A stretch of 64,000 nt of DNA from Escherichia coli (GCF_022846255.1 NZ_AP025682.1); one strand, 5' to 3'; positions 22,759 through 47,486 are shown, counted from the stretch's first letter. Made by a program: numbers and translations. Notes: generated from the letters alone by a model not told the origin.

Positions 22759-23427
22759 ATGGTTGACATGAAAACTACGCATACCTCCCTCCCCTTTGCA
22801 GGACATACGCTGCATTTTGTTGAGTTTGATCCGGCGAGTTTTCGCGAGCAGGATTTACTCTGGCTGCCGCACTACGCACAACTTCAACACGCTGGACGTA
22901 AACGTAAAACAGAGCATTTAGCCGGGCGGATCGCTGCAGTTTATGCGCTGCGGGAATATGGCTATAAATGTGTGCCCGCAATCGGCGAGCTACGCCAACC
23001 TGTGTGGCCTGCGGAGGTATACGGCAGCATTAGTCACTGTGGGACTACGGCATTAGCCGTGGTTTCCCGTCAACCGATTGGCATTGATATTGAAGAGATT
23101 TTCTCTGCACAAACCGCAAGAGAATTGACAGACAACATTATTACACCAGCAGAACACGAGCGACTCGCAGAATGCGGTTTAACCTTTTCTCTGGCGCTGA
23201 CACTGGCATTTTCCGCCAAAGAGAGCGCATTTAAGGCAAGTGAAATCCAAACTGATGCAGGTTTTCTGGACTATCAAATTGGAAATTGTCAGCATCAACA
23301 GATGAATATAAGCGGGCCGAATGGCGACCATATCGTGCAGTGGTTAGTAAGGGGTAATAATGTTATTACCTTGTGCCTGGTAGATAAACACCCGCACACT
23401 GCAGCATGCGGGTTATCTGGCGGGTAA
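22759..23427 (+). CDS. entD: 4'-phosphopantetheinyl transferase for EntB/EntF
   Basis: MKTTHTSLPFAGHTLHFVEFDPASFREQDLLWLPHYAQLQHAGRKRKTEHLAGRIAAVYALREYGYKC...; PPTase motifs; start taken at MVDMKTT; C-terminal ~45 aa differ from the K-12 allele as I recall it. Confidence 0.85.
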   Translation: MVDMKTTHTSLPFAGHTLHFVEFDPASFREQDLLWLPHYAQLQHAGRKRKTEHLAGRIAAVYALREYGYKCVPAIGELRQPVWPAEVYGSISHCGTTALAVVSRQPIGIDIEEIFSAQTARELTDNIITPAEHERLAECGLTFSLALTLAFSAKESAFKASEIQTDAGFLDYQIGNCQHQQMNISGPNGDHIVQWLVRGNNVITLCLVDKHPHTAACGLSGG

Positions 23428-23428
23428 T

Positions 23429-24364
23429 TCAAAGCATTTCCCGTGCCTGAGCTGCAATTCCGGCAGCATCAAATCCATGATGCTGACGCAACCACCCACG
23501 ATCCGCCGCTGCGGCATATTCTCCATCCATAATGCCTGCGCGTTTTAATTTGATCCCCGTTCCGGCCTCTGCCAACACTTCCGCGACCAGGCTACCAAGG
23601 CCGCCATTGACGTTATGCTCTTCAACCGTCATCACTGCTTTGCATCCTTTTAACGCTGCCAGCAATGCTTTGGTGTCGCATGGGCGAATCGACGGTACGC
23701 TGACAACTGTAGCCGCGATACCAGACTGCGCTAAAAGTTCTGCGGCATCGACCACTTCATGAACGGTAGAGCCTGTGGCTACCAGCGCCAGTTCGCTGCC
23801 CTCGCGCAAAGTCACCACGGCACCTGGTACAAATCGGTAGTCCTCATCGTGGATTTCCGGCAGGGCTTTACCGTCCATACGGATATAAACAGGCCCCTGA
23901 TAGCGAAGAGCATAATCAATCACCTGACGGCACTCCCGAGGTGAAGACGGGGCAAAGATTTGAATATTGCCGAAACCACGCATAACCGCAATGTCATCAA
24001 TCGCATGATGCGTGCTCGCCAGCGGTCCATAACTCGCCCCGGCATTCAGACCAAACAATTTTACGTTGGTAAAGTTGTAGCAGACATCAACCTTGATTTG
24101 CTCGTTAGCGCGAGCGATAAGAAATGGCGCGGCATTGCAGGTAACAGCCACCTTGCCGCCCAGCGCCAGCCCGGCAGCGGCACCAACCATGCTCTGTTCG
24201 GCAATACCCACATTCACCAGTCGGTCAGGAAATTGCTTAATAAAGGGAGCAATTTTTGCCGTAGACGTTGAATCAGCCACTACAGGCACCAAATCGATCC
24301 CCTCATTTACGGCATCGATAAATGCCTGAACCATCACATTTGCCAGATGTTCACTGTTACGCAT
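23429..24364 (-). CDS. Transketolase C-terminal (pyrimidine-binding) subunit of a split transketolase
   Basis: 311 aa, MRNSEHLANVMVQAFIDAVNEGIDLVPVVADSTSTAKIAPFIKQFPDRLVNVGIAEQSMVGAAAGLALGGK...; overlaps the N-subunit gene by 8 bp. Confidence 0.85.
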   Translation of the reverse strand: MRNSEHLANVMVQAFIDAVNEGIDLVPVVADSTSTAKIAPFIKQFPDRLVNVGIAEQSMVGAAAGLALGGKVAVTCNAAPFLIARANEQIKVDVCYNFTNVKLFGLNAGASYGPLASTHHAIDDIAVMRGFGNIQIFAPSSPRECRQVIDYALRYQGPVYIRMDGKALPEIHDEDYRFVPGAVVTLREGSELALVATGSTVHEVVDAAELLAQSGIAATVVSVPSIRPCDTKALLAALKGCKAVMTVEEHNVNGGLGSLVAEVLAEAGTGIKLKRAGIMDGEYAAAADRGWLRQHHGFDAAGIAAQAREML

Positions 24365-25187
24365 CTTTGAGTTCCTTCAGTGCCTGTTCAATTTCATCGC
24401 CTTTCGGCACCCGGTGATGCCATTCCGCACGCCCTTGTATAAAGGAAATGCCTGCCCCTTTAGTGGTGTGGGCAATCACCACATTCGGTTTGCCTTCCTG
24501 TTTAAGCCCTTCAAGCGTCGCGACAACCGAAGCCATATCATTGCCCTGACATTCGGTAACCTGCATACCGAATGCCAGCCATTTCTCTGCCAGAGGATCG
24601 GTGTTCATGATTTCGCGCGTTGGCCCGGCTAATTGCAGATTATTTTTGTCATTAATAATGACCAGGTTATCAAGCCCGTAATGCGCCGCCGCCAGTGCAG
24701 CTTCCCAGTTACTGCCCTCAGCCAGCTCACCATCGCCAGTAATTAAGAAGATACGACGACGGCTTTGACTTTTTTTCGCCGCCAGCGCAAGTCCTACAGC
24801 CACAGGGAAACCATGTCCCAGTGCTCCGGTATTCAGTTCAATACCTGGCGTTTTTTGCCGAACCGGATGGCCGGGTAAGTGTGAATTTGGCTGCTGATAA
24901 GTGGAAAGCCATTCCAGTGGGAAGAATCCTGCTTCCGCCAGCACGCAGTAGTAACATCCAACAGCATGGCCTTTTGACTGAATGTATATATCCCGGTCAT
25001 CGTCGTGAAGGCGATCCGGGGCGACATTGAGAATACGAAAATAGAGTGCGGTCAGTAATTCAACCTGAGAGAGATCGGCCCCAGTGTGTCCACCTGCCGG
25101 GCTATTGGCATTTAAGCGCACGATATGGCAGCGTACCGCCCGCGCTTTACGCTCAAGGGTCTGGATATCATAGCTATAGGGATTCAT
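24357..25187 (-). CDS. Transketolase N-terminal (thiamine-diphosphate binding) subunit
   Basis: 276 aa with TPP-binding GDGELAEGSNWEAALAAAHYGLDNLVIINDKN motif; first gene of a two-gene unit divergent from the regulator. Confidence 0.85.
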   Translation of the reverse strand: MNPYSYDIQTLERKARAVRCHIVRLNANSPAGGHTGADLSQVELLTALYFRILNVAPDRLHDDDRDIYIQSKGHAVGCYYCVLAEAGFFPLEWLSTYQQPNSHLPGHPVRQKTPGIELNTGALGHGFPVAVGLALAAKKSQSRRRIFLITGDGELAEGSNWEAALAAAHYGLDNLVIINDKNNLQLAGPTREIMNTDPLAEKWLAFGMQVTECQGNDMASVVATLEGLKQEGKPNVVIAHTTKGAGISFIQGRAEWHHRVPKGDEIEQALKELKDA

Positions 25188-25367
25188 TTAATACCTCTGA
25201 ATTTATTTTCAACATGGAATATTTATTCCACCGGGGACTAAAAAAACCAGAAATCCCAGGGCGTTGCGCGGCAAGACTTACGCTGCTGCATCATACTCAG
25301 GAACATTCTGCCTCCTTACACCGTCAGTTACGTGTCCGGGTAATCATCAGTTGACCTGATATCATCT

Positions 25368-25381
25368 TGAATATATATTCA
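25368..25381. promoter_or_regulatory. Palindrome TGAATATATATTCA in the transketolase / regulator divergent promoter region; candidate operator
   Basis: Direct reading; the same 12-bp core GAATATATATTC recurs at 26729..26740 upstream of the kinase-transporter operon. Confidence 0.45.
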
Positions 25382-25549
25382 ATAATGATTCTTTATTCAA
25401 TTATGCCGCCTGTTTTTTATTTTTGTCCATCGCTGATTTTAAGGATTGGTTAAAGTTAGAACTCCATCACACTTAACTGTCTTCTTTTTTCGCGTATGAT
25501 AAAAGCCTCTAAGATAAGGGCGGTACGTTAATGATTTACGGGGAAATAT

Positions 25550-26500
25550 ATGGCTAAGCAGGATGAACAGCGGCTACTGGTGAAGATCGCCACTCTTTAC
25601 TATCTTGAGGGGCGAAAACAGTCTGACATCGCCCAACTTCTCTCGCTTTCTCAGTCATTTATCTCCAGAGCGCTAACCCGTTGCCAGAAAGAAGGCGTGG
25701 TTAAAATCAGCGTTGTCCAGCCGTCAAATATCTTTCTCAATCTGGAAAAAGGCATTGAAGAGCGTTACGGCATTAAACAAGCGATTGTTGTCGATACCGA
25801 AGATGATGCCACTGACCATACCATTAAACGTGCTATCGGCTCTGCCGCCGCGCACTATCTGGAAACGCGTTTAAGACCAAAAGATTTCATTGGCGTCTCT
25901 TCCTGGAGTTCTACGATTCGCGCGATGGTCGATGAAGTTCACGCCCAAAACTTAAAAGCCAGCGGCGTTATTCAGCTGCTGGGCGGCGTGGGGCCAAACG
26001 GCAATGTGCAGGCAACTATTTTGACACAGACCCTGGCCCAGCATCTGAATTGCGAAGCCTGGTTGCTTCCTTCTCAAAGCATTGAAGGTTCGGTAGAAGA
26101 GAAAAAACGCCTGGTGGCAAGCCAGGATGTGGCTGACGTTATCGCCAGATTTGACGACGTCGATATCGCCATTGTCGGCATCGGTATCCTTGAACCCTCG
26201 CAGTTGCTAAAAACCTCGGGCAACTATTATCACGAGGATATGTTACAGGTACTGGCGGATCGCGGTGCTGTGGGCGATATCTGCCTGCACTACTACGATA
26301 AACATGGTCAGCCCGTGTTGCAGGACGATGAAGATCCAGTGATTGGTATGGCACTGGATAAAATCAAAAAATGCCCGAATGTGGTGGCACTGGCGGGCGG
26401 CAAAGACAAAGTTGCCGCCATCAAAGGCGCCATGCAGGGTGGTTATATTGATGTTTTGATCACTGATTTCCCCACCGCCAGAATGCTGATTGCGGATTAA
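25550..26500 (+). CDS. SorC/DeoR-family sugar-binding transcriptional regulator
   Basis: 316 aa; N-terminal HTH (QSDIAQLLSLSQSFISRALTRCQKEGVV) and C-terminal sugar-phosphate-binding domain typical of SorC/DeoR/EryD regulators. Confidence 0.85.
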   Translation: MAKQDEQRLLVKIATLYYLEGRKQSDIAQLLSLSQSFISRALTRCQKEGVVKISVVQPSNIFLNLEKGIEERYGIKQAIVVDTEDDATDHTIKRAIGSAAAHYLETRLRPKDFIGVSSWSSTIRAMVDEVHAQNLKASGVIQLLGGVGPNGNVQATILTQTLAQHLNCEAWLLPSQSIEGSVEEKKRLVASQDVADVIARFDDVDIAIVGIGILEPSQLLKTSGNYYHEDMLQVLADRGAVGDICLHYYDKHGQPVLQDDEDPVIGMALDKIKKCPNVVALAGGKDKVAAIKGAMQGGYIDVLITDFPTARMLIAD

Positions 26501-26523
26501 TCCTCTCCTCCCTTTCTTCTGCC

Positions 26524-26552
26524 CGCCTTTGCGAAAAAATCTTCTCGCAAAG
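26524..26552 (+). terminator. Hairpin downstream of the regulator gene; candidate intrinsic terminator
   Basis: cctttgcgaaaaaatcttctcgcaaagg forms a 9-bp stem; the 3' flank is not strongly T-rich, so strength is uncertain. Confidence 0.35.
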
Positions 26553-26646
26553 GCGCTTGCTTAAAAATCCTTTAATATCAATAAACTGAAATGATTCAAC
26601 AATCCTGTTTCTCGAGGCTTTCTCACCCTGTCACCACGCTTCTAAG

Positions 26647-26662
26647 TGTGATAGCCAGCACA
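26647..26662. promoter_or_regulatory. CRP-like site TGTGA-N6-GCACA upstream of the kinase-transporter operon
   Basis: tgtgatagccagcaca; 4/5 + 5/5 match to the CRP half-sites TGTGA/TCACA; about 190 bp upstream of the kinase start. Confidence 0.35.
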
Positions 26663-26728
26663 TTTGATGATTTTTTCTCTAGCTCAGGAAGAATAATCTG
26701 GCTAAGGTATAAATAAATAATCAGCATC

Positions 26729-26740
26729 GAATATATATTC
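26729..26740. promoter_or_regulatory. Second copy of the GAATATATATTC palindrome; candidate operator of the kinase-transporter-dehydrogenase operon
   Basis: Direct reading; identical 12-bp core to 25369..25380. Confidence 0.45.
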
Positions 26741-26850
26741 ACGCCTTAACACAAAATGTCACAGCAGGGCCTGATGAAGTAATAACGTGACCATGAGGAA
26801 CGCCTCATCTCCTTCCACGCCAGGATGCAATGTGACTCAGGAGACTACCT

Positions 26851-28371
26851 ATGTTTGCAGGAAATAAAGAGTTCGTTGTTGCGTTGGATGAGGGTACCAC
26901 CAATGTAAAAGCCATCGCACTTGATGGTTTCGGTAACGTGGTGGCGAAGTTTTCTCAACCACTGGCTATTCAGACGCCACGTGAAGGCTGGGTTGAGCAA
27001 TCCGGGGAAGCGTTAATCTCTGCCTCGCTTGATGTTATTGCCCAGGCCATCAACCACGTGGGGGCAGAAAATGTAGCGGCTCTGGCTATCAGTAATCAGC
27101 GTGAAACGGCTATCGGCTGGTATCGTCAGAGTGGAAAACCACTCAATGCGGCGATTACCTGGCAATGCACGCGCAGTGCAGAGTTTTGTGAAACACTTCG
27201 TCGCGAGGGCAAAGAGCAGCAAATTAAAACGACTACAGGCCTGCCTATCGCCCCGCTATTTTCCGCGTCCAAGATGCGTTGGCTACTGGAATCTACACCT
27301 GAGGGTGTGCAACTTGCCGACCAGGGTGAAATTTGTCTCGGCACCATTGATGCCTGGTTGCTATGGAACTTGACTGCTGGCGATTCATTTTGCTGCGACT
27401 ACTCTAACGCCGCGCGAACTCAATTACTTAACCTGAAAACAGGCGAGTGGGATGAGGAAATGCTGGCGTTGTTTCACATCCCACGCGCTGCATTGCCAGA
27501 AATTAAACCTTCCAGTGGCCTGTTCGGTTATACCCGAGGACTTAAAACAATTCCGGATGGTATTCCCGTCATGGCGATGGTGGGCGATTCTCACGCCGCT
27601 CTTTTTGGTCATGCGTTGGGAGAAGCGGGATGTGTGAAGGCGACCTATGGGACCGGTTCTTCCGTCATGGCCCCCGTCAACTCTGCTCAGTGTGATATCG
27701 CCACACTTGCCACAACCATTGCCTGGCATGATGGCGAAAATATTATTTACGGTCTGGAAGGAAATATCCCCCACACCGGCGATGCCGTGGCATGGATGGC
27801 TGACAGCACCGGTTTAAGTGAACTGACAGACGCGGAGCTGGCCCACGAACTGAATACCCTGCCAGCCTCAGTGGATTCGACTATGGGTGTTTATTTTGTT
27901 CCTGCTCTCACTGGCCTGGGCGCGCCATGGTGGGATGACAGCGCTCGCGGCGTGGTGTGTGGCTTAAGCCGTGGCGTAAAGCGCGCGCATTTGATTCGTG
28001 CCGCAATGGAATCAATCACTTATCAAATTGCAGATGTAGTGGAGGCAATGCAACAGCATGATGATTTTCACTTATCGGCGTTAATGGTGGATGGCGGCCC
28101 GACCAAAAATGACTGGTTGATGCAATATCAGGCGGATCTGCTGGGTTGCCCGGTGATGCGCAGTGATGTGCCAGAGCTTTCAGCCATTGGTGCGGGCCTG
28201 CTCGCCCGCAAAGCGCTTATCCCCGGTACCGTTGCAGATTTAAAAGCGTTATTAACTGAACACAGTGAATTTAAACCGGACATGGCGCGTCATCAGCGAC
28301 TGCAAAAGAGATGGCAGGAGTGGCGTCATGCGGTAAACAGAACATTATGGAAACCGGCATCGTCAATTTGA
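26851..28371 (+). CDS. FGGY-family carbohydrate kinase (xylulokinase / glycerol kinase-like)
   Basis: 506 aa, MFAGNKEFVVALDEGTTNVKAIALDGFGNVVAKF...; FGGY N- and C-terminal domain signatures. Confidence 0.85.
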   Translation: MFAGNKEFVVALDEGTTNVKAIALDGFGNVVAKFSQPLAIQTPREGWVEQSGEALISASLDVIAQAINHVGAENVAALAISNQRETAIGWYRQSGKPLNAAITWQCTRSAEFCETLRREGKEQQIKTTTGLPIAPLFSASKMRWLLESTPEGVQLADQGEICLGTIDAWLLWNLTAGDSFCCDYSNAARTQLLNLKTGEWDEEMLALFHIPRAALPEIKPSSGLFGYTRGLKTIPDGIPVMAMVGDSHAALFGHALGEAGCVKATYGTGSSVMAPVNSAQCDIATLATTIAWHDGENIIYGLEGNIPHTGDAVAWMADSTGLSELTDAELAHELNTLPASVDSTMGVYFVPALTGLGAPWWDDSARGVVCGLSRGVKRAHLIRAAMESITYQIADVVEAMQQHDDFHLSALMVDGGPTKNDWLMQYQADLLGCPVMRSDVPELSAIGAGLLARKALIPGTVADLKALLTEHSEFKPDMARHQRLQKRWQEWRHAVNRTLWKPASSI

Positions 28372-28474
28372 CGAACAAGACTAACCAACGGAAGGAGAAT
28401 ACCGGCCCATAAATAATTCAGGCTTTACGTTGTTTCACCGTACCCGACAATAACAACACAGAGAGAACATTGTC

Positions 28475-29410
28475 ATGAAATTACGTTTAACACTGTTAAC
28501 CGCTGCGACCCTGACTGCTCTTTCTTTTTCTGCTCATGCGGTAGAAAAAGGAACCATTATGATTATGGTCAATTCACTGGATAATCCTTATTACGCCTCG
28601 GAAGCGAAAGGTGCCAGTGAAAAAGCCCAGCAACTGGGATATAAAACGACCATTCTTTCTCATGGTGAAGATGTCAAAAAACAGAATGAACTGATCGATA
28701 CTGCAATTGGTAAAAAAGTTCAGGGCATTATTTTAGATAATGCCGACTCCACTGCCAGTGTTGCAGCCATTGAAAAAGCAAAAAAAGCAGGTATTCCCGT
28801 TATATTAATTAATCGCGAAATACCTGTGGATGATGTTGCACTGGTGCAAATTACCCATAATAACTTCCAGGCTGGCTCGGAAGTTGCCAACGTATTTGTC
28901 GAGAAAATGGGAGAGAAAGGAAAATATGCCGAACTCACCTGTAATCTTGCTGATAATAATTGCGTAACTCGCTCGAAATCTTTCCATCAGGTCATTGACC
29001 AGTTCCCTGAAATGGTCAGCGTGGCGAAGCAAGATGCCAAAGGCACGTTAATTGATGGCAAACGGATAATGGACAGTATTCTGCAAGCCCATCCCGATGT
29101 AAAAGGGGTGATTTGTGGTAATGGTCCGGTTGCACTGGGAGCTATCGCAGCACTGAAAGCAGCCAATCGCAATGACGTTATTGTTGTCGGCATTGATGGC
29201 AGTAACGATGAGCGCGATGCCGTGAAAGCCGAATCATTGCAGGCTACCGTGATGTTACAAGCGCAAGCCATTGCCGCGCAGGGGGTTACCGATTTGGATA
29301 ATTACCTGCAAAAAGGAGTTAAACCAGCCAAACAGCGGGTGATGTTCCGCGGCATTCTGATAACCAAAGATAACGCAGATAAAGTCCAGGATTTCAATAT
29401 CAAATCCTGA
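28475..29410 (+). CDS. Periplasmic sugar-binding protein of an ABC transporter (RbsB-like)
   Basis: 311 aa with signal peptide MKLRLTLLTAATLTALSFSAHA; periplasmic binding protein type I fold. Confidence 0.85.
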   Translation: MKLRLTLLTAATLTALSFSAHAVEKGTIMIMVNSLDNPYYASEAKGASEKAQQLGYKTTILSHGEDVKKQNELIDTAIGKKVQGIILDNADSTASVAAIEKAKKAGIPVILINREIPVDDVALVQITHNNFQAGSEVANVFVEKMGEKGKYAELTCNLADNNCVTRSKSFHQVIDQFPEMVSVAKQDAKGTLIDGKRIMDSILQAHPDVKGVICGNGPVALGAIAALKAANRNDVIVVGIDGSNDERDAVKAESLQATVMLQAQAIAAQGVTDLDNYLQKGVKPAKQRVMFRGILITKDNADKVQDFNIKS

Positions 29411-29456
29411 TCCCAGGTCGTTGCGCCCTCACAATGAGGGCGCAGAGGAGAATATT

Positions 29457-30077
29457 ATGGATAAAAAAGTCTGGCTGGCGCTGGCAATTCTGAGCCTGGG
29501 TGGATGTCGCATCGTCTCGCAGCAGGAACTTGCCGATCTCAAATCCCCGCCTAATCCTCATATGGCAAATATCGATCAGACCTGGCAGAAAAATATCGTG
29601 CCGCAGGTGGTAGAAAATGCACGTCCGGTTGCGGAGTTAATGGCGGCGCTACAGGCAGAAAAAGATGTCGATGCTGCCTGTAAAACGCTGGGCTATCGTT
29701 CTCAGGAAGAAAACCCGTGTATTTTCTACGTTAAGGTCGAAGGTGGCATCACCAATATTGATGCGAAATCCCGTAGCGGAAAAATGACCATCACAGATAT
29801 CAGCGGCACAAATATTGTCGTGCAGACGGGGCCAACTCTTCGCGGCACGCTTCTGCGAGATGCATATAAAGGTGCAAGCTATGAGCATTTTAACGATCAG
29901 GTTTTATTTGGTGAATATGGTCGTGCTATCAATGAGCAAGCCATCAATATGATTCAGTCGGCAAAGCTTAAAACCGGGGAAACGGTTCAGGTTTATGGCG
30001 TATTTTCTGCATGGGATATTCCGCAAACTATCCCGGATATAACGCCTGCGAAAATAGCCAGGGCGGGAGGCGAGTAA
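29457..30077 (+). CDS. DUF2291-like predicted lipoprotein embedded in the ABC transporter operon
   Basis: MDKKVWLALAILSLGGC... with a lipobox LSLGGC; start chosen at the internal Met with the signal peptide rather than the track start at 29421. Confidence 0.65.
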   Translation: MDKKVWLALAILSLGGCRIVSQQELADLKSPPNPHMANIDQTWQKNIVPQVVENARPVAELMAALQAEKDVDAACKTLGYRSQEENPCIFYVKVEGGITNIDAKSRSGKMTITDISGTNIVVQTGPTLRGTLLRDAYKGASYEHFNDQVLFGEYGRAINEQAINMIQSAKLKTGETVQVYGVFSAWDIPQTIPDITPAKIARAGGE

Positions 30078-30078
30078 T

Positions 30079-31623
30079 ATGTTGCCGCAAGAAATTGACA
30101 CCCCCCAGACTGATGAATCACCTGTAATCATAGAAACGCATGACTTATCGCGTATTTATCCGGGTGTGGTGGCGTTAGATAACGTGAATTACCGTGTCTA
30201 TCGCAATAGAGTGAATGTGCTTATTGGTGAAAACGGTGCGGGTAAATCCACAATGATGAAAATGCTGGCGGGGGTTGAAACACCTTCCTCAGGCAAGATC
30301 ATTCTTGATGGTAAAGAAGTTACCCTAAATTCTACCCATCAGGCCGAAAAACATGGAATTAGTATCATTTTTCAGGAACTGAATTTATTCCCGAATATGA
30401 ATGTCATAGATAACATTTTCATGGCGAATGAATTTTTTCAGAAAGGGAAGATTAACGAAAAATATCAGTATGAATTAGCCAAATCTTTATTAGAGAGACT
30501 GGAGTTGGACGTTGATCCCTATACCCAACTGGGAGAACTTGGTATTGGTCATCAGCAACTGGTGGAGATTGCCCGTGCCCTTTCTAAAGATACCCGGGTA
30601 CTGATTATGGATGAACCGACCTCGGCCCTCAGCCAGTCGGAAGTCAAAGTACTTTTCAATGTGATCGCACAACTGAAGCGCCGTGGTGTCACCATCATTT
30701 ATATCTCCCACCGTCTGGAAGAGTTGATGGAGATTGGCGATTTCATCACCATTTTCCGTGATGGTCGCTTTATTAGTGAACGCGCAGTGAGCGATGCCAG
30801 TATTCCGTGGATCATCGCACAAATGGTCGGTGATAAGAAAAAACATTTTGATTATCAACCAGCTACACAAGGTGACACTGTACTGGCGGTACTGGGGTTA
30901 ACGGCGCTGCATCCCAGCGGTGGTTACAAACTCAATGATGTGACATTCAACCTGCGTAAAGGCGAAGTTATCGGCATTTACGGCTTGCTGGGCGCAGGAC
31001 GTACTGAGCTATTTAAAGGACTGGTGGGCCTGATGCCCTGTCAGAGTGGGAAGATCCTGCTTAATGGTGAAACCATCGACAAATGCCATTTCCAGGCGCG
31101 GCTCAAAAAGGGGCTGGCGTTGGTGCCAGAAGATCGCCAGGGCGAAGGCGTCGTTCAGATGATGTCGATTCAGTCCAATATGACGCTATCCGATTTCAGC
31201 CTGCAAGGTTTTCGCCGTGCCTGGAAATGGCTGAATCCGCAAAAAGAGAGCGCCAGTGTGAAAGAGATGATCCAGCAACTGGCGATCAAAGTCAGTGATG
31301 CCGAACTCCCTATTACCTCACTCAGCGGCGGTAACCAGCAAAAAGTGGTACTTGGCAAAGCGTTGATGACCCAGCCACAGGTGGTGTTTCTTGATGAACC
31401 CACACGCGGCATTGATGTTGGCGCAAAAACCGACGTCTATCAGCTGGTGGGAAAAATGGCACAACAGGGGCTGGCAGTCATGTTCTCTTCTTCAGAACTC
31501 GATGAAGTCATGGCACTGGCAGATCGCATTCTGGTGATGGCTGATGGCCGTATTACCGCTGATCTACCCCGGGGCGAAGTCACCCGAGAGAAACTGATCG
31601 CGGCTTCAACACCTCAAGATTAA
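30079..31623 (+). CDS. Sugar ABC transporter ATPase with duplicated ATP-binding domains (RbsA-like)
   Basis: 514 aa; Walker A GENGAGKST in the first half, a second nucleotide-binding domain, signature LSGGNQQK. Confidence 0.9.
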   Translation: MLPQEIDTPQTDESPVIIETHDLSRIYPGVVALDNVNYRVYRNRVNVLIGENGAGKSTMMKMLAGVETPSSGKIILDGKEVTLNSTHQAEKHGISIIFQELNLFPNMNVIDNIFMANEFFQKGKINEKYQYELAKSLLERLELDVDPYTQLGELGIGHQQLVEIARALSKDTRVLIMDEPTSALSQSEVKVLFNVIAQLKRRGVTIIYISHRLEELMEIGDFITIFRDGRFISERAVSDASIPWIIAQMVGDKKKHFDYQPATQGDTVLAVLGLTALHPSGGYKLNDVTFNLRKGEVIGIYGLLGAGRTELFKGLVGLMPCQSGKILLNGETIDKCHFQARLKKGLALVPEDRQGEGVVQMMSIQSNMTLSDFSLQGFRRAWKWLNPQKESASVKEMIQQLAIKVSDAELPITSLSGGNQQKVVLGKALMTQPQVVFLDEPTRGIDVGAKTDVYQLVGKMAQQGLAVMFSSSELDEVMALADRILVMADGRITADLPRGEVTREKLIAASTPQD

Positions 31624-31640
31624 TCAGGCTGGAATTTCTT

Positions 31641-32708
31641 ATGAATCAGAAATATATGATCTATATGTACCTGTTGAAAGCCAGAACGTTTATCGCTCTG
31701 CTGTTAGTGATCGCCTTCTTTAGCGTGATGGTGCCTAACTTCCTGACGGCCTCTAACCTGCTGATTATGACTCAACACGTTGCGATTACCGGGCTGCTGG
31801 CAATCGGAATGACGCTGGTGATCCTGACAGGCGGCATCGATCTTTCCGTCGGCGCGGTAGCGGGGATCTGCGGAATGGTTGCCGGGGCTCTGCTAACAAA
31901 CGGCCTGCCATTGTGGAGCGGCGATATTATTTTCTTCAACGTACCGGAAGTGATCCTCTGCGTGGCGGTATTTGGCATTTTAGTGGGACTGGTGAATGGT
32001 GCGGTAATCACCCGCTTTGGTGTCGCGCCCTTTATCTGCACCCTCGGTATGATGTACGTCGCCCGTGGCTCTGCCCTGCTGTTTAATGATGGCAGCACTT
32101 ACCCCAATCTCAACGGCATGGAGGCACTGGGCAACACGGGTTTCGCCACCCTTGGTTCTGGCACGTTTTTAGGCGTTTATTTGCCAATCTGGCTGATGAT
32201 TGGCTTTTTGATTTTAGGCTACTGGATCACGACTAAAACGCCGCTCGGTCGTTATATCTATGCCATTGGTGGCAATGAATCTGCCGCGCGACTGGCAGGC
32301 GTACCCATCGTAAAAGTCAAAGTGTTCGTCTATGCGTTCTCCGGATTATGCGCCGCATTTGTCGGTTTGATTGTTGCCTCGCAGCTGCAAACCGCTCACC
32401 CAATGACCGGCAATATGTTCGAAATGGATGCTATCGGTGCCACGGTTCTTGGTGGAACTGCGCTGGCAGGTGGTCGGGGACGTGTCTCTGGCTCGATTAT
32501 CGGTGCCTTTGTCATTGTCTTCCTCGCCGATGGCATGGTGATGATGGGGGTCAGTGATTTCTGGCAAATGGTCATTAAAGGCCTCGTTATCGTCACCGCC
32601 GTGGTAGTCGATCAGTTCCAGCAAAAATTGCAAAACAAAGTCATTTTGATGCGTCGCCATGAAGAAAAGATGGCCGCCGCACCTGCCGTAAAACCGCTTT
32701 CCAGTTAA
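31641..32708 (+). CDS. Sugar ABC transporter permease (RbsC-like)
   Basis: 355 aa polytopic membrane protein of the monosaccharide ABC permease family. Confidence 0.85.
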   Translation: MNQKYMIYMYLLKARTFIALLLVIAFFSVMVPNFLTASNLLIMTQHVAITGLLAIGMTLVILTGGIDLSVGAVAGICGMVAGALLTNGLPLWSGDIIFFNVPEVILCVAVFGILVGLVNGAVITRFGVAPFICTLGMMYVARGSALLFNDGSTYPNLNGMEALGNTGFATLGSGTFLGVYLPIWLMIGFLILGYWITTKTPLGRYIYAIGGNESAARLAGVPIVKVKVFVYAFSGLCAAFVGLIVASQLQTAHPMTGNMFEMDAIGATVLGGTALAGGRGRVSGSIIGAFVIVFLADGMVMMGVSDFWQMVIKGLVIVTAVVVDQFQQKLQNKVILMRRHEEKMAAAPAVKPLSS

Positions 32709-32761
32709 TTAACATCATTCCGCCGGGCATTAAATTGCCCGGCTTATACAGGGGAAAAAAT

Positions 32762-33559
32762 ATGCAACGTAATTTTCAGGGTAAGACTGTAGTTATTACC
32801 GGGGCATGCCGGGGAATTGGGGCCGGGATCGCTGAACGCTTCGCCCGCGATGGCGCAAATCTGGTGATGGTTTCTAACGCTGCACGCGTGCATGAAACTG
32901 CTGAGCAACTGCGCCAATGTTATCAGGCTGACATTTTGTCATTAGAAGTCGATGTGACAGATGAAGCGCAAGTACAGGCACTCTATGAACAAGCGGCTGC
33001 ACGTTTTGGCAGCATCGATGTTTCCATTCAGAATGCAGGCATTATCACCATCGATTATTTTGATCGAATGCCGGCTGCTGATTTCGAAAAAGTGCTGGCG
33101 GTGAACACTACGGCAGTCTGGCTCTGCTGCCGGGAAGCAGCCAAATATATGGTGAAACAAAATCACGGCTGCCTGATCAACACCTCTTCTGGCCAGGGAC
33201 GTCAGGGGTTTATCTATACCCCACACTATGCAGCCAGCAAAATGGGTGTGATCGGCATTACGCAAAGCCTGGCGCACGAGTTAGCGCAGTGGAATATCAC
33301 TGTTAACGCCTTCTGCCCTGGTATTATCGAAAGCGAAATGTGGGACTACAACGACCGCGTATGGGGAGAAATTCTCAGTACCGATGACAAGCGTTATGGC
33401 AAAGGCGAGCTTATGGCGGAATGGGTGGAAGGTATTCCGATGAAGCGTGCCGGTAAACCTGAAGATGTTGCCGGACTGGTTGCCTTCCTCGCCTCTGACG
33501 ATGCGCGTTATCTCACCGGTCAAACCATCAACATCGACGGCGGCCTGATTATGTCGTAA
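32762..33559 (+). CDS. Short-chain dehydrogenase/reductase (polyol / sugar dehydrogenase-like)
   Basis: MQRNFQGKTVVITGACRGIGAGIAERFA...; TGxxxGIG Rossmann motif and catalytic YxxxK; ATG at 32762 preferred over the upstream TTG-initiated track start. Confidence 0.8.
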   Translation: MQRNFQGKTVVITGACRGIGAGIAERFARDGANLVMVSNAARVHETAEQLRQCYQADILSLEVDVTDEAQVQALYEQAAARFGSIDVSIQNAGIITIDYFDRMPAADFEKVLAVNTTAVWLCCREAAKYMVKQNHGCLINTSSGQGRQGFIYTPHYAASKMGVIGITQSLAHELAQWNITVNAFCPGIIESEMWDYNDRVWGEILSTDDKRYGKGELMAEWVEGIPMKRAGKPEDVAGLVAFLASDDARYLTGQTINIDGGLIMS

Positions 33560-33591
33560 TGCCCCTGCGGGCTACTAAGAGAGATATCAAA

Positions 33592-34377
33592 ATGATCGCA
33601 AAAGATTTTGCTCAACAATTGTTTGATCTCCACGATCGCGTCGCCTTTGTCACTGGCGCAGGTAGCGGTATCGGACAAATGATCGCTCTGGCTTTAGCCA
33701 GCGCAGGCGCACGAGTGGTGTGTTTTGATCTACGGGAAGATGGCGGACTCAAAGAGACGGTTAATCATATCGAAGCACTTGGCGGACAAGCCTTGTATTA
33801 CACGGGCGATGTTCGGGAATTGAGAGATCTTCGCGCAGCAGTCGCTCTGGCAAAAACACATTTTGGTCGTCTGGATATTGCCGTAAACGCCGCTGGAATC
33901 GCTAACGCAAACCCGGCGCTGGAGATGGAAAGCGAGCAATGGCAACGCGTTATCGATATCAACCTGACTGGTGTGTGGAATTCCTGTAAGGCGGAAGCCG
34001 AGTTAATGGTAGAGAACGGAGGCGGCTCGATTATAAATATTGCGTCAATGTCCGGGATTATCGTCAATCGCGGTCTGGAACAGGCTCACTACAACAGCTC
34101 CAAAGCAGGCGTGATTCATTTATCTAAAAGTCTTGCGATGGAATGGGTGAGTAAAGGGATCCGTGTGAACTCAATCAGTCCAGGATATACCGCAACACCA
34201 ATGAATACCCGACCTGAAATGGTGCATCAGACTCGGGAGTTTGAAATCCAGACGCCGATTCAGCGGATGGCGAAAGTGGAAGAGATGGCGGGTCCAGCGC
34301 TGTTCCTTGCCAGCGATGCGGCGTCGTTCTGCACTGGTGTTGATCTGGTGGTCGATGGTGGTTTTGTCTGCTGGTAA
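33592..34377 (+). CDS. Second short-chain dehydrogenase/reductase
   Basis: MIAKDFAQQLFDLHDRVAFVTGAGSGIGQMIALALA...; SDR motifs; start at 33592 preferred for its upstream gagag Shine-Dalgarno, with 33559 as alternative. Confidence 0.8.
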   Translation: MIAKDFAQQLFDLHDRVAFVTGAGSGIGQMIALALASAGARVVCFDLREDGGLKETVNHIEALGGQALYYTGDVRELRDLRAAVALAKTHFGRLDIAVNAAGIANANPALEMESEQWQRVIDINLTGVWNSCKAEAELMVENGGGSIINIASMSGIIVNRGLEQAHYNSSKAGVIHLSKSLAMEWVSKGIRVNSISPGYTATPMNTRPEMVHQTREFEIQTPIQRMAKVEEMAGPALFLASDAASFCTGVDLVVDGGFVCW

Positions 34378-34486
34378 AAATGGTTTCGCCCGCAGCCATC
34401 ACTGACCGCGGGCGAAAGTGTAAAGCAGGTGCCTTACCACCCTGACCTGACAACCGGATATGCGGGGATTGCTCCCCGCACAACGG

Positions 34487-34639
34487 CTACTTCTTCGGTT
34501 CGTAAGCGAGAACAACCTTAAACTCAATATTACGTTCCTTTACGGTAAACTCACACAGCGAGTCTCCGACCAGAAGCGTAAATCCCAGCACCGTTAAACA
34601 CAGCACTATGACTGCCACAAGGGCATATTTCGTCAGCAT
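34487..34639 (-). CDS. hokE: Hok-family small membrane toxin, copy 1 (variant with V at the position where copy 2 has A)
   Basis: [50 protein letters not shown], 50 aa; Hok family signature; overlapped by mok-like ORF 34551..34739. Confidence 0.8.
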
Positions 34640-34739
34640 GTTTATATTGCCTCCATGCGAAGAAGGGACTACCATCCAAATTGTTCAGGTTTGGGTAGGT
34701 AGCCCCAAGGTTGATAGAAATATCGTCCTGGGGCTTCAT
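34551..34739 (-). CDS. mokE: mok-like overlapping reading frame, copy 1
   Basis: 62-aa ORF overlapping the hok start in a different frame, as in hok/mok/sok loci. Confidence 0.5.
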
Positions 34740-34990
34740 CTTTCCAGACCTCAGAGTAAACCTGAAACCGGAAAGCTTCAGGCACCCGCAGTTATCTTAC
34801 CCTTCCTTAGCAAAATAGCTGTTTATTTATACAGTGAGTCCTGTTTAGGACTTTTCACCTGTATTATCGCCCATGCCAGTAAAACGAAATCGCCCGCAGC
34901 CATCTCTGACTGCGGGCGAAAGTGTAAAGCAGGTGCCTTACCATCCTGACCTGACAACCGGATATGCGGGGATTACTCCCCGCACAACGG

Positions 34991-35143
34991 CTACTTCTTC
35001 GGTTCGTAAGCGAGAACAGCCTTAAACTCAATATTACGTTCCTTTACGGTAAACTCACACAGCGAGTCTCCGACCAGAAGCGTAAATCCCAGCACCGTTA
35101 AACACAGCACTATGACTGCCACAAGGGCATATTTCGTCAGCAT
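34991..35143 (-). CDS. hokE: Hok-family small membrane toxin, copy 2
   Basis: [50 protein letters not shown], 50 aa; the copy adjacent to ybdK. Confidence 0.85.
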
Positions 35144-35243
35144 GTTTATATTGCCTCCATGCGAAGAAGGGACTACCATCCAAATTGTTCAGGTTTGGGT
35201 AGGTAGCCCCAGGGTTGATAGAAATATCGTCCTGGGGCTTCAT
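35055..35243 (-). CDS. mokE: mok-like overlapping reading frame, copy 2
   Basis: 62-aa ORF overlapping the hok start in a different frame. Confidence 0.5.
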
Positions 35244-35579
35244 CTTTCCAGACCTCAGAGTAAACCTGAAACCGGAAAGCTTCAGGCACCCGCAGTTATC
35301 TTACCCTTCCTTAGCAAAATAGCTGTTTATTTATACAGTGAGTCCTGTTTCGGACTTCTCATTTAATCAACTGAAGCTGAACCCGTTTTTTTCTGCATGC
35401 CTCAATCGTCAAAATTCTTCGCCGCCAGCCAGCTCTGCCATAACTTGTCACATTGCAAAAGTAGCCAAATTGCTTCAGTCACAATCAGTTCTCCATCACC
35501 AAAAAAAGAAACATTCCAGAACTTCCGCATCTCACCCAGCCGCTCCCACTTCTATACTGAATAGAAAACGCCAACATAA

Positions 35580-41197: not shown

Positions 41198-44100
41198 TTA
41201 TTTCCGTACCCGATGTCGGTGCAGCCACATCAGCTTATACGCCGCCGGGATAATAAACAGCGACAGCAAAGGCGCGGTGATCATGCCGCCAATCATCGGC
41301 GCGGCAATCCGGCTCATCACCTCTGACCCTGCTCCTGTTCCCCACAGAATCGGCAGCAGACCAGCGATAATCACCGCCACCGTCATCGCTTTTGGGCGCA
41401 CGCGCAGTACCGCGCCGTGATATAACGCCTCATCCAGCTTCTGCTCGCTGAATGTTTGCGGATTATTCAACGACGGCTCGGCCTCTATGGCGTGACGTAA
41501 ATACATCAGCATCACCACGCCAAATTCGGCGGCGACCCCGGCAAGGGCAATAAAACCGGTGCCCGTCGCCACGGAAAGATGAAAGCCCATCCACCACAGC
41601 AACCAGATGCCGCCCACCAGCGCAAACGGTACGCTGCTGATAATCAGCAACGCTTCGCCCACCCGACGGAACGCCAGATACAACAGCACGAAGATGATCA
41701 TCAGCGTCATCGGCACCATCAGTTTCAGCTTATGGTTGGCGCGCTCCAGTAGCTCGAACTGCCCGGAGAATGCCACGCTAGTGCCCGGTTTTAACTGCAC
41801 TTTTTCAGCTATCGCTTTTTGCAGATCGTGAACCACCGACACCATGTCACGATCGCGGGCATCGATATAAATCCAGCTCGTCGGGCGCGCATTCTCGGTT
41901 TTCAGCATCGACGGTCCGGTAGAGACTTTAACGTCGGCCACGTCCGCCAGAGTGATTTGCTGCTTCATCGGCGTGAGGATCGGCAACTGGCGCAGTGCCT
42001 GCGGGCTATCGCGCCAGCTTTGCGGATAACGCAGATTAATTGGATAACGAGCAATCCCTTCCACCGTTTCGCCAACCATCGCCCCGCCCACCGCAGAAGT
42101 CACAAACAACTGCACATCCGCCACCGTCATACCGTAACGCGCGGCTTTTTCACGGTTAATCTCAACGTTGATATAGCGCCCACCTTCCAGACGCTCAGCA
42201 AGCGCAGAAGCCACGCCTGGCACCGTTCGCGCCACTTCTTCAATTTGCTCCGCCATCGTGTCGATATCCGCCAGCACAGTGCCGGAAACTTTAATGCCGA
42301 TAGGGCTTTTAATGCCAGTCGAGAGCATATCGATACGGTTACGAATTGGCGGCACCCACAGATTCGCCAGCCCCGGCAGACGCACGGTGTTATCCAGTTC
42401 CTCAATGATTTTGTCCATCGTCATGCCAGGCCGCCACTGATCCTGCGGCTTAAGCTGGATAGTCGTTTCTACCATCTCCAGTGGAGCAGAATCGGTGGCG
42501 GTTTCCGCTTTCCCGGTTTTGCCAAATACCCGCGCCACTTCAGGTACGCTCATAATCAGCTTGTCGGTTTTTTGCAGCATACTCGCCGCCTCCGCTGCGG
42601 AAATCCCCGGCAGCGTCGATGGCATATACAACAAGTCGCCTTCATTGATCTGCGGTAAAAATTCCCCGCCCACTTTATTGAGCGGCCAGAGAACCGTCAG
42701 CACCGAAAGCGCTGCCACCAACAGCGTGGTTTTCGGCCAGTGCAGTACTTTCAGCAACAGCGGATGATAAACACGAATCAAAAAGCGATTGAGCGGGTTA
42801 CTGCTTTCTGGCGGAATTTTGCCACGGATCCAGTAGCCCATCAGGATCGGGATCACTACAATCGCCAGTAGCGCCGCGCCCGCCATCGCATAGGTTTTGG
42901 TGAACGCCAGCGGGCCAAACAGACGACCTTCCTGCCCTTCCAGGGTGAAGATCGGGATAAACGACAGCGTGATAATCAGCAGACTGATAAACAGCGCCGG
43001 CCCCACTTCAACAGATGCATCGGTGATCACCTGCCAGCGCGTTTTATTATCCAGCGTGGCGTCAGGATGCTGGTGCTGCCACTCTTCCAGCCGTTTATGC
43101 GCATTCTCGATCATGACGATAGCGGCATCGACCATCGCCCCGACGGCAATCGCAATGCCACCCAACGACATAATATTGGCGTTCAGTCCCTGAAAGTGCA
43201 TGACAATAAAAGCAATACACAACCCCAGCGGCAACGAAATAATCGCCACCAGCGCCGAGCGCACATGCCAGAGAAACAGCGCACAGACTACCGCCACCAC
43301 AATAAACTCTTCCAGCAACTTGCCGCTGAGGTTGTCAATGGCGCGGTCAATGAGCTGGCTGCGATCGTATGTTGTAACTATCTCCACGCCTTCCGGCAGA
43401 CTGCTTTTCAGCGTTTCCAGTTTGTCCTTCACGGCGGCGATTACTTCTCGGGCGTTTTTGCCGGAGCGCAGGATCACCACCCCGCCCGCCACTTCGCCTT
43501 CGCCGTTCAGTTCGGCAATGCCCCGGCGCATCTCCGGGCCAATCTGGACCTTCGCAACATCACGCAGATAAACGGGCACGCCATTTTCACTGGCTTTTAA
43601 AACGATGTGATTAAAGTCGTCGAGCGTTTGCAGATAGCCGCTGGCTCGCACCATATATTCCGCTTCCGCCAGTTCGATCGACGAACCACCCGCTTCCTGG
43701 TTTGAAGCATCCAGCGCGCTTTTTACTTCGGCGAGACTGATGCCATATTGCGCCAGGCGCTGAGGATCGATAACCACCTGATACTCTTTCACCACACCGC
43801 CTACCGACGCCACTTCCGCAACGTCAGGAATGGTTTTCAGCTCATATTTGAGAAACCAGTCCTGCAATGAGCGTAAATCGGCAAGATCGTGCTTACCGCT
43901 GCGATCCACCAGTGCATATTCATAGATCCAGCCAACACCCGTGGCATCTGGCCCCAGCTCGGCGCTGACTCCCGCAGGCAGCTTACCCTGTACCTGGTTG
44001 AGGTACTCCAGCACCCGCGAGCGCGCCCAGTACGGATCGGTGCCATCTTCGAAAATGACATACACATAAGAGTCGCCAAACTGCGAGAAACCGCGCACAG

Positions 44101-44341
44101 TCTTCGCGCCAGGCACCGACAACATGGTGGTGGTTAGCGGATAAGTCACCTGATTTTCAACGATTTGCGGTGCCTGACCGGGATAGCTGGTTTTAATAAT
44201 CACCTGCACATCAGAGAGATCCGGCAGTGCATCCACTGGCGTGTTAATGATGGTCCAGGTGCCCCAGATACTCAGAAACAACGCGCCCATCAGCACCAGA
44301 AAACGGTTCGCCACCGAGCGACGAATAATCCATTCAATCAT
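41198..44341 (-). CDS. cusA: RND inner-membrane Cu(I)/Ag(I) efflux pump
   Basis: 1047 aa, [59 protein letters not shown]...; heavy-metal efflux RND family. Confidence 0.95.
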
Positions 44342-44352
44342 TGGTTATTCCC

Positions 44353-45576
44353 TCAATGCGCATGGGTAGCACTTTCAGAGCGCATCCGCTCCAGTGCGCC
44401 AGAAATATTGGCTTCGGAATCAATCAGGAACAGGCCGCTGGAAACCACCTTTTCACCTTCCGCCAGACCAGAGCGTAATGCGGTGACGCCTTGCGATGCC
44501 TGGAAAACGGCAACGCGTTTCGGTACAAAGCGCCCGTCGGCATCAACGGTAATCACCCGCTGTTCGCTGCCGGTATCAATCAGCGCTTGTGACGGAATGA
44601 GCAGCATCGGTTCGCTGGCGGTGTTGAGTTGCAACCAGGCGTTCATTCCCGGCTTTAGCGCCTCGTCGGTGTTGTCGACTTCCAGGCGCAGCTGCAGCGT
44701 GCGGGTTGCGGCATCCACGCCGGGTAGCAGCGTCCATTTGCGGATGGTGAGTGTTTTATCAGGTCGTGCCGGAACGGTGAGCGTAAACTGCGAGGCATCT
44801 TTCACCAGCCAGGCGATGGACTCCGGGATCGCGGCAGTGATCCACACCGGGTCCATACCCTGAATTTTCGCGACCACGTTATCTTTGGCGATATTCATTC
44901 CCGCGCGCAGATCAAACGCGGTGATCACGCCATCAATGGGCGATTTGAGCGTAAAGCGAGTCTGGATTTTTTGCGTGGCGATCAGGCGGCGAATATCCGC
45001 CTCCGGCATTCCCGCCAGTCGCAGTCGCTCAAGAATGCCTTCAGTCTGGGTCGCCGTACCGCCGGTTTCGCGCAGCAGTAAATACTCACTCTGCGCTTCC
45101 ACCCAGTCGGGAATGGTCAGGTCGAGAAGCGGCGCGCCCTTTTGCACTTTATCGCCCACGGTAAGCGGATACACCTTGTCGATAAACCCGGCGGCGCGGG
45201 CCTGCACAATGGCATACTGATACTCGTTGTAACTGACATTCGCCGGGAAACTCTGGGAAAAAGTCAGCGGCCCGCGCGTGACGGTCGCCGTTTTCACCCC
45301 CAGATTCTGCGTCTGAGTCGGGTCAATGCGCACACCAGACGCAGAACTCTCTTCATCGGCATATTTCGGCACCAGATCCATATCCATAAACGGCGATTTC
45401 CCTGGTTTATCGAACCGCGTATTGGGATACATCGGGTCGTACCAGAATAAGACTTTACGTTCTGCGGTCGACGTTTTTTCTGCGGGCGGTTCCTCCTTTG
45501 CAAACCAGGTAAAACCTGCCGCAGAAATAATACCGCCCGCGATCATGCTGCCGATAATAAGCGCGATTTTTTTCAT
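44353..45576 (-). CDS. cusB: Membrane fusion (periplasmic adaptor) protein of the Cus system
   Basis: 407 aa, MKKIALIIGSMIAGGIISAAGFTWFAKEEPPAEK... Confidence 0.95.
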   Translation of the reverse strand: MKKIALIIGSMIAGGIISAAGFTWFAKEEPPAEKTSTAERKVLFWYDPMYPNTRFDKPGKSPFMDMDLVPKYADEESSASGVRIDPTQTQNLGVKTATVTRGPLTFSQSFPANVSYNEYQYAIVQARAAGFIDKVYPLTVGDKVQKGAPLLDLTIPDWVEAQSEYLLLRETGGTATQTEGILERLRLAGMPEADIRRLIATQKIQTRFTLKSPIDGVITAFDLRAGMNIAKDNVVAKIQGMDPVWITAAIPESIAWLVKDASQFTLTVPARPDKTLTIRKWTLLPGVDAATRTLQLRLEVDNTDEALKPGMNAWLQLNTASEPMLLIPSQALIDTGSEQRVITVDADGRFVPKRVAVFQASQGVTALRSGLAEGEKVVSSGLFLIDSEANISGALERMRSESATHAH

Positions 45577-45591
45577 CTCATTAAACCTGGG

Positions 45592-45924: not shown

Positions 45925-45947
45925 TTATTCTCTCCTGGAGTTAAAAA

Positions 45948-47330: not shown

Positions 47331-47399
47331 AGGCTCATAATTTCTGGTGATTTTATGCTGCCAACTTTACTCGCCAGGCTCTGATTTTCCGGTGACAGG

Positions 47400-47421
47400 A
47401 AAATGACAAAATTGTCATTTT
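47400..47421. promoter_or_regulatory. CusR box (palindrome AAAATGACAAAATTGTCATTTT) in the cusC / cusR divergent promoter
   Basis: Direct reading of a perfect inverted repeat matching the known CusR operator between cusC and cusR. Confidence 0.8.
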
Positions 47422-47486
47422 GCCAATAAGCGATTGCCATCTGATCCCGCTACTCTAGAATTGCCCGGGCAACATGCGGAGGAAAT

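Follow-up and report, generated by a model that had tools for sequence, protein, structure and literature searches.

A ten-gene D-apiose catabolic cluster between entD and hokE of Escherichia coli, and the possible role of its two short-chain dehydrogenases

INTRODUCTION

In some strains of Escherichia coli, a block of ten genes separates the enterobactin gene entD from the toxin-antitoxin module hokE, which raises the question of what this block does and how it came to lie there. We addressed it in a 64,000-nt stretch of E. coli DNA from NZ_AP025682.1 (the window; all coordinates count from its first letter), in which ten intact open reading frames (ORFs) are found between the two genes. A preliminary description of this DNA had given these genes the coordinates and orientations that we confirm below and had called them a purely metabolic carbohydrate island, a view borne out by the gene families and by a published cluster for D-apiose, a branched sugar of plant cell walls. 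Very probably, the block is the cluster for D-apiose catabolism known from E. coli lineages of phylogroup B2, where the "transketolase" route lacks its isomerase; two short-chain dehydrogenases/reductases (SDRs) would take the place of this enzyme, and the block has been exchanged by recombination. The finding is already known, having been described by Royer et al. (J Bacteriol 2026, PMC13001218) and, according to these authors, predicted by Carter et al. in 2018. What is new here is that the SDR pair and the isomerase never occur together across the 80 loci that we surveyed.

RESULTS AND DISCUSSION

Gene content and identity with the published cluster

Family labels come from NCBIfam profiles, the RefSeq annotation of the block in E. 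coli AF16 and precomputed Pfam matches on Klebsiella and Raoultella orthologues, and those of the preliminary description agree with all three. The genes are as follows (identities are to proteins of E. coli SE15).

23429..24364, minus strand: aptB, transketolase C-terminal (pyrimidine-binding) subunit, 311 aa; 99.7% to ECSF_RS02715
24357..25187, minus strand: aptA, transketolase N-terminal (thiamine pyrophosphate-binding) subunit, 276 aa; 98.9% to ECSF_RS02710
25550..26500, plus strand: SorC/DeoR-type sugar-binding regulator, 316 aa; 99.7% to ECSF_RS02705
26851..28371, plus strand: aplK, FGGY-family kinase (apulose kinase), 506 aa; 99.2% to ECSF_RS02700
28475..29410, plus strand: periplasmic CUT2-type sugar-binding protein (SBP), 311 aa; from NCBIfam and solved-structure relatives
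29457..30077 (alternative start 29421), plus strand: DUF2291 lipoprotein (PF10054) in the transporter operon, 206 aa; lipobox MDKKVWLALAILSLGG|C
30079..31623, plus strand: two-domain ABC ATPase, 514 aa; from NCBIfam, Pfam and SE15 alignment
31641..32708, plus strand: ABC permease, RbsC-like, 355 aa; from NCBIfam, Pfam and SE15 alignment
32762..33559 (alternative start 32735), plus strand: SDR1, classical short-chain dehydrogenase, 265 aa; 99.6% to ECSF_RS02675
33592..34377 (alternative start 33559), plus strand: SDR2, classical short-chain dehydrogenase, 261 aa; 98.9% to ECSF_RS02670

The two transketolase genes overlap by 8 nt. The Pfam set comprises Transketolase_N, Transket_pyr/Transketolase_C, PF04198 Sugar-bind, FGGY_N/C, Peripla_BP, PF10054 DUF2291, ABC_tran (two domains), BPD_transp_2 and two adh_short, while NCBIfam holds a specific model for none of the ten proteins apart from NF004774, an SDR equivalog of unnamed function that matches SDR2. 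The complete genome nearest to the window is that of AF16, where the cluster's ABC ATPase gene (L001, 11080-12625) is annotated as a frameshifted pseudogene, which suggests occasional decay of the pathway; the window gene is intact.

All ten proteins are 97.9 to 100% identical to ECSF_RS02670-02715 of SE15, full-length, gapless and collinear. In SE15, gene set and gene order are the same, and so is the site, which has two hokE copies on one side and entD on the other. SE15 is the reference for the ten-gene D-apiose degradation cluster of Royer et al. (aplK, aptA, aptB, a transporter and two putative oxidoreductases), and on the strength of these identities we regard the block as that known system. 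The counterpart of the window kinase, ECSF_RS02700, is the gene named aplK in PMC13001218, and the split transketolase, AptA plus AptB, is encoded beside it. The same paper places the cluster always downstream of the enterobactin genes. It was present in 100% of the complete genomes of STc131 and STc14, in a few other B2 sequence types, in roughly one in four E. fergusonii and in an Escherichia species that has no name yet; across some 400,000 assemblies of E. coli, its frequency was 7.97%. The cluster of STc131, STc14 and E. fergusonii shares with the window all ten genes, their order, orientation and site, and we found no structural difference. When 10 mM D-apiose was the only source of carbon, growth was seen for three E. 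coli carriers and for E. fergusonii but not for K-12 (PMC13001218). The cluster is therein presented as a lineage marker and as a nutrient pathway that may define the niche of the pandemic extraintestinal clones ST131 and ST1193/ST14. That E. coli has this pathway had, per PMC13001218, been proposed by Carter et al. from sequence similarity.

These data change what can be said about the substrate. The preliminary description had proposed a polyol, had held that the substrate could not be read from sequence and had named erythritol, ribitol, arabitol and xylitol loci as comparators. The substrate is in fact inferable and was tested in the published growth assay; the branched aldopentose D-apiose, on which carriers grow, is the compound that enters, and the D-apiose cluster is the closest known system. 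The route drawn in that description, with uptake, a ketose, phosphorylation by the FGGY kinase and a dedicated transketolase, fits the published pathway (PMC13001218), but with an aldopentose and not primarily a polyol at its entry. An erythritol- or threitol-type pathway was considered as well, as SDR2 matches the GolD/DthD subfamily below cut-off, and was rejected because kinase, transketolase and SBP all point to an apiose system.

The pathway ascribed to Carter et al. 2018 reportedly runs from D-apiose through D-apulose to apulose-4-phosphate, with a transketolase step that yields xylulose-5-phosphate and dihydroxyacetone phosphate. In the window, the SBP, the DUF2291 lipoprotein, the ATPase and the permease would import D-apiose, which the two SDRs would convert to D-apulose in series, by reduction to D-apiitol and then oxidation at C2. 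AplK would phosphorylate D-apulose to apulose-4-phosphate, and AptAB would transfer the C1-C2 ketol unit of this compound to glyceraldehyde-3-phosphate, giving xylulose-5-phosphate and dihydroxyacetone phosphate. The genes, their layout and their identity with the published cluster were observed directly; from them we infer every enzymatic step in E. coli, and foremost that from aldose to ketose.

AplK is glycerol kinase-like yet scores under the curated GlpK cut-offs of NCBIfam and is therefore not a glycerol kinase. NCBIfam has no curated AplK profile, and homologue searches returned generic names ("FGGY family carbohydrate kinase"); one preprint gives apulose kinase as EC 2.7.1.233, with UniProt Q6D5T8 from Pectobacterium.

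The best solved relative of the SBP is a Rhizobium etli protein (5ibq/4ry0; 270 bits, E value of 2.4e-79, about 50% identity), compared with about 112 bits for E. coli RbsB. The PDB name of 5ibq says only "probable ribose ABC transporter" and papers citing 5IBQ give no ligand; this entry is reportedly the D-apiose-bound SBP of Carter et al. 2018. For the DUF2291 protein, we found no solved-structure relative.

Two short-chain dehydrogenases and the missing isomerase

The Escherichia cluster has no apsI, the D-apiose isomerase gene of the Pectobacterium cluster, and the two oxidoreductases have been hypothesized as a substitute (PMC13001218). In a tblastn comparison of the isomerase from the second cluster type (described below) with the whole window, the best match had an E value of 0.26. 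The window therefore belongs to the published isomerase-less variant and not to the canonical pathway (MetaCyc PWY-8089).

To survey the alternatives, we scanned a single representative genome of each species by kinase alignment. The 80 loci obtained were scored by tblastn with the ten window proteins and with a 472-aa gene product typical of the second cluster type; loci were counted raw, with kinship ignored. Orthologues of both SDRs were present in 38 of the 80 loci (28 of Enterobacterales type and 10 from Pseudomonas) and the isomerase in 28 others (Leclercia, Kosakonia, Phytobacter, Citrobacter braakii, Aeromonas and others), while no locus had the SDR pair and the isomerase together.

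These 28 loci represent the isomerase-type "transketolase" cluster (Pectobacterium; PWY-8089; Carter et al. 2018 cited in PMC13001218). Compared with the window, aplK is 68 to 76%, aptA and aptB 73 to 81% and the SorC-type regulator 71 to 75% identical, and in both cluster types a DUF2291-like protein (27% identical, at the same position) accompanies a CUT2 ABC importer, often at the same site beside entD. The operon layout, however, is different, and identity falls to 43% for the SBP. The gap between aptB and aplK is filled in the isomerase type by the 472-aa gene, an aldose-ketose isomerase of the Fucose_iso_C (L-fucose isomerase) family, and SDRs are absent, whereas in the window the isomerase is missing and two SDRs are present. 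From its position and the description by Royer et al., we infer that this isomerase is ApsI.

The mutual exclusion of SDRs and isomerase supports the published guess that the former replace the latter, and adds modest support to it. It also bears on the idea that the SDRs are accessory passengers acting on side substrates or in detoxification, with a housekeeping isomerase of E. coli performing the aldose-ketose step. The tie between SDRs and apiose does rest on sequence and distribution rather than experiment, and two loci (L039 and L042) keep kinase, transketolase and transporter with neither SDRs nor isomerase. But the complementarity with the isomerase gene is strict across 66 loci, and the SDR genes follow directly after the permease gene in the same operon, are highly conserved and stay linked to aptAB even in Pseudomonas, all of which makes passengers very improbable. 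Within the Enterobacteriaceae, the SDRs are 88 to 94% conserved between genera, compared with 84 to 87% for the kinase; in Pseudomonas, SDR1 conservation is still 74 to 77%, and the link is to aptAB genes 66 to 69% identical to those of the window where the kinase (49%) and the transporter differ.

Replacement of the isomerase by SDRs would call for two different reactions, and the two proteins are only 29% identical to each other. Both have the glycine-rich TGxxxGxG motif and the catalytic YxxxK of classical SDRs, together with strong adh_short-type matches. In SDR1 (TGACRGIG and YAASK), an acidic residue is lacking at the end of beta-2, and the protein is similar to acetoin, sorbitol and ribitol dehydrogenases. 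SDR2 (TGAGSGIG and YNSSK) has an Asp at this position (VVCFDL), as is typical of NAD(H) enzymes, which suggests that it uses NAD(H); galactitol and polyol dehydrogenases (2wdz and 3awd) are among its nearest relatives of solved structure. The oxidation of a polyol to a ketose by the SDRs, as in the preliminary description, would thus survive as one half of the conversion, the hypothesized replacement of an isomerase requiring a reduction as well.

A D-apiose reductase (EC 1.1.1.114) was reportedly purified in 1970 from "Aerobacter aerogenes" grown on apiose. The SDR-type cluster is found in Klebsiella aerogenes and K. pneumoniae, and a literature text search on apiose reductase and EC 1.1.1.114 returned nothing relevant. 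A reversible NADH-dependent interconversion of D-apiose and D-apiitol is catalogued as KEGG R03577 (PMC1686944). This reaction and the Klebsiella clusters also speak to the order of the two steps. The SDRs might instead oxidize first, turning the C2 hydroxyl into a 2-keto-aldehyde that is then reduced at C1 with no D-apiitol intermediate; this order would be equally redox neutral, would also need two different oxidoreductases and is not distinguished by the sequence data. Dicarbonyl intermediates are, however, reactive and unusual in sugar catabolism, and it is reduction to D-apiitol that is catalogued, so that oxidation first appears quite unlikely. Taken together, exclusivity, conservation, motifs, R03577 and the Klebsiella clusters support the bypass that reduces and then oxidizes via D-apiitol.

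Similar designs are known elsewhere. The fungal xylose reductase and xylitol dehydrogenase, which stand in for the xylose isomerase of bacteria, likewise reduce the sugar to a polyol and oxidize this at C2 ahead of an FGGY kinase, but they belong to the aldo-keto reductase and medium-chain dehydrogenase families and not to the classical SDRs, which makes the likeness one of analogy and not of homology. The ribitol (rbt) and D-arabitol (dal) operons of Klebsiella combine, as here, an SDR polyol dehydrogenase, an FGGY ketose kinase, a dedicated transporter and a repressor. Unlike the window with its two SDRs, they have a single dehydrogenase and no dedicated transketolase, and feed directly into ribulose-5-phosphate or xylulose-5-phosphate.

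Apiose clusters in other taxa

In Klebsiella, Raoultella, Citrobacter, Trabulsiella and Intestinirhabdus, the neighbour of the SDR-type cluster is fepA, in most cases together with entD (16 of the 28 surveyed loci, plus L004, L006 and L090), and the isomerase type stands beside an entD homologue in seven loci (C. braakii, Leclercia, Phytobacter, Kosakonia and others). It thus seems that the Enterobacteriaceae have an old "apiose locus" next to the enterobactin genes, occupied by either of the two cassette types. The closest clusters outside Escherichia are those of Citrobacter amalonaticus-like genomes, with proteins about 86 to 97% identical (DUF2291 about 80%). These levels are consistent with the failure of Royer et al. 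to find a recent donor (PMC13001218).

Reduced variants were found in two taxa. In Salmonella enterica (L007 and L008), a glycoside-pentoside-hexuronide (GPH) symporter, SDR2 only, the kinase, the regulator and the split transketolase lie beside tktA and speB. A second locus of Phytobacter massiliensis (L031) combines a kinase resembling AplK with an enzyme similar to SDR1 and a polyol transporter of the RbtT/DalT type (major facilitator superfamily), which is exactly the rbt/dal layout. Both variants may handle apiitol or an apioside.

Such loci bring back a polyol as the chief substrate. The cluster would then serve mainly for the import of, for example, D-apiitol, its oxidation to a ketose by an SDR and passage through kinase and transketolase, growth on D-apiose being secondary. 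Consistent with this are the resemblance of both SDRs to polyol dehydrogenases, the polyol transporter that accompanies kinase and SDR1-like enzyme in Phytobacter, the retention of kinase, transketolase and SDR2 only in Salmonella, and an SBP in the window far more distant from 5ibq than the isomerase-type SBP, which matches this entry at 445 bits. Yet carriers do grow when D-apiose is their only carbon source (PMC13001218), one dehydrogenase would suffice for a polyol although two dissimilar SDRs are co-conserved in 38 loci, and the distribution of the pair is exactly complementary to that of an aldose-ketose isomerase. We therefore consider a mainly polyol-directed cluster unlikely.

The Pseudomonas clusters (L071-L081) may form a third type, directed at this substrate or at one related to it. 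Their aptA and aptB are 66 to 69%, SDR1 74 to 77%, SDR2 63 to 66% and the regulator 55 to 58% identical to those of the window, but the kinase is only 48 to 51% identical and the ABC transporter looks unrelated (SBP, 28 to 30%). In L039 (Klebsiella sp. BIGb0407) and L042 (an uncultured Cedecea), the transporter, regulator, aptAB and kinase are of the isomerase type, and fimbrial genes come right after the kinase. Enterobacteriaceae-like SDR-type clusters also appeared in a metagenome-assembled genome labelled as the Firmicute Sporobacter termitidis (L024; kinase, 83%; an entD fragment is also present) and in a record labelled as the alphaproteobacterium Martelella alba (L038; kinase, 74%). These two probably reflect bin contamination or misclassification and not transfer.

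Several observations weigh against D-apiose catabolism with an SDR bypass as the function of the cluster. The growth evidence is correlative, and its authors ask for biochemical work (PMC13001218). The window SBP, at about 50% identity to 5ibq and 43% to the isomerase-type SBP, could prefer a different ligand. Exclusivity was counted over loci without phylogenetic correction, two otherwise complete loci (L039 and L042) have neither SDRs nor isomerase, and source databases name the isomerase only as "L-fucose/L-arabinose isomerase family". Finally, the reduced variants conflict on the roles of the SDRs, with SDR2 alone kept in Salmonella and an SDR1-like enzyme paired with a polyol transporter in Phytobacter. 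Against this background, we would give about even chances to the full proposal that the SDRs form an oxidoreductive bypass of the isomerase, that one of them (SDR2, as the NAD(H)-type candidate) is the gene for the NADH-dependent reductase of R03577, and that the entD-adjacent site is an ancient apiose locus. If true, the bypass would be a natural non-orthologous replacement of one enzymatic step by two, and it might give an orphan enzyme activity a gene.

Predicted regulation

The regulator has the N-terminal helix-turn-helix and the PF04198 sugar-binding domain of SorC/DeoR-type repressors (PF04198 was found on Klebsiella and Raoultella orthologues 90 to 92% identical to it). Its full-length NCBIfam matches, to DeoR (201 bits) and LsrR (136 bits), are under the equivalog cut-offs. 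We aligned the two intergenic regions of the cluster across 13 genera, with the following candidate elements.

25188..25549, no strand: divergent control region between aptA and the regulator gene, with three copies of GAATATATATTC (25199, 25217 and 25369) and promoter-like hexamers
26524..26555, plus strand: hairpin after the regulator gene with 14-nt arms, 93% complementary, a likely terminator; stem kept via compensating sequence in other genera
26647..26662, plus strand: CRP-like site TGTGATAGCCAGCACA upstream of aplK, by consensus match only
26729..26740, plus strand: fourth GAATATATATTC palindrome upstream of aplK, a candidate operator, from alignment and motif scan

The GAATATATATTC palindrome is conserved in the 13 genera, and its perfect copies are confined to the two intergenic regions of the island; at two mismatches or fewer, the window has eight matches compared with 2.3 expected. 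TGTGAT-N5/6-GCACA is kept in all 13 aligned genera. Promoter-like hexamers showed no enrichment over shuffled sequence. On the simplest reading of this arrangement, there would be three transcription units, aptAB, the regulator gene, and aplK to SDR2. The SorC-type regulator would repress the aptAB and aplK operons at the palindromes until a pathway intermediate appears, and CRP would activate. By analogy with other members of the SorC family, the effector is probably a phosphorylated intermediate.

Boundaries and origin of the segment

The preliminary description had taken the block to be accessory, which complete genomes confirm, since at least 80% of it is covered in 626 of 5,426 complete E. 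coli genomes, it is absent from K-12, and the site between entD and hokE is empty in some strains, such as SSGNw2. The block had also been placed exactly where K-12 has IS186. K-12 BW25113 does have an IS4-family element (IS186, annotated as IS421 family) in the same intergenic region, but about 92 bp to the right of the right junction of the island, so that the insertion points differ.

22768..23427, plus strand: entD, enterobactin phosphopantetheinyl transferase; body of E. coli type, tail (23280-23427) of a divergent allele
23280..34384: segment missing from the empty-site allele, 11,105 bp, which stands in for 128 bp of the empty site

In a blastn comparison with SSGNw2, homology stops at 23279 and restarts at 34385, which puts the left junction inside entD, with the last ~35 codons exchanged. 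As far as "...FLDYQI", EntD is 96 to 97% identical to the K-12 and SSGNw2 proteins; beyond it, the tail is 34% identical to the K-12 type, is 13 residues longer and matches only that of Escherichia sp. MOD1-EC7003 (79%), a cryptic species that also carries the cluster. Citrobacter, Klebsiella and Raoultella were rejected as donors of the tail, theirs, like that of Trabulsiella, being only 14 to 32% identical. Royer et al. also noted that entD is apparently part of the exchanged region (PMC13001218). The entD stop codon ends one base before the convergent aptB stop, with no space for a terminator between them.

The segment has a GC content of 0.494, compared with about 0.53 in its flanks, and none of the hallmarks of a mobile genomic island (integrase or transposase, tRNA or att target, flanking direct repeats) was found. 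There is no integrase or transposase ORF among the ten genes, no tRNA was detected in 18000-40000, and the junctions share no direct or inverted repeat of 8 nt or longer in a k-mer comparison. Because of these absences and of a junction inside entD with a divergent tail, we read the block from its sequence as a chromosomal segment swapped by homologous recombination, with one crossover inside entD, and not as a mobile element.

The window has 98.7% DNA identity to E. coli and 95.6% to Escherichia sp. MOD1-EC7003, and E. fergusonii or a cryptic clade was therefore rejected as its source. Its best complete-genome match is AF16 (98.7 to 98.9%), and identity to the ST131 reference SE15 is 97.9% over 35 kb. 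Over 12-kb stretches (23000-35000 and 44000-56000 were checked), the closest complete E. coli genomes reach about 98.4 to 98.9%. The lineage of the window is probably an island carrier other than ST131 that is sparse among complete genomes.

To the right of the island, the hokE/sok toxin-antitoxin module is duplicated in tandem (34385-34857 and 34890-35361). The copies, about 472 bp each, share 96 to 98% identity with the one copy present in the empty-site strain SSGNw2, and each opens with a strong terminator-like hairpin; Rfam sok matches lie at 34631-34787 and 35135-35291 on the minus strand. There are two copies in SE15 and AF16 and one in K-12 and SSGNw2. On the other side, between fepA and entD and just upstream of the latter, 22668-22709 matches the Rfam small RNA ES036 (CssrF) with 42.2 bits, compared with a gathering score of 37.6.

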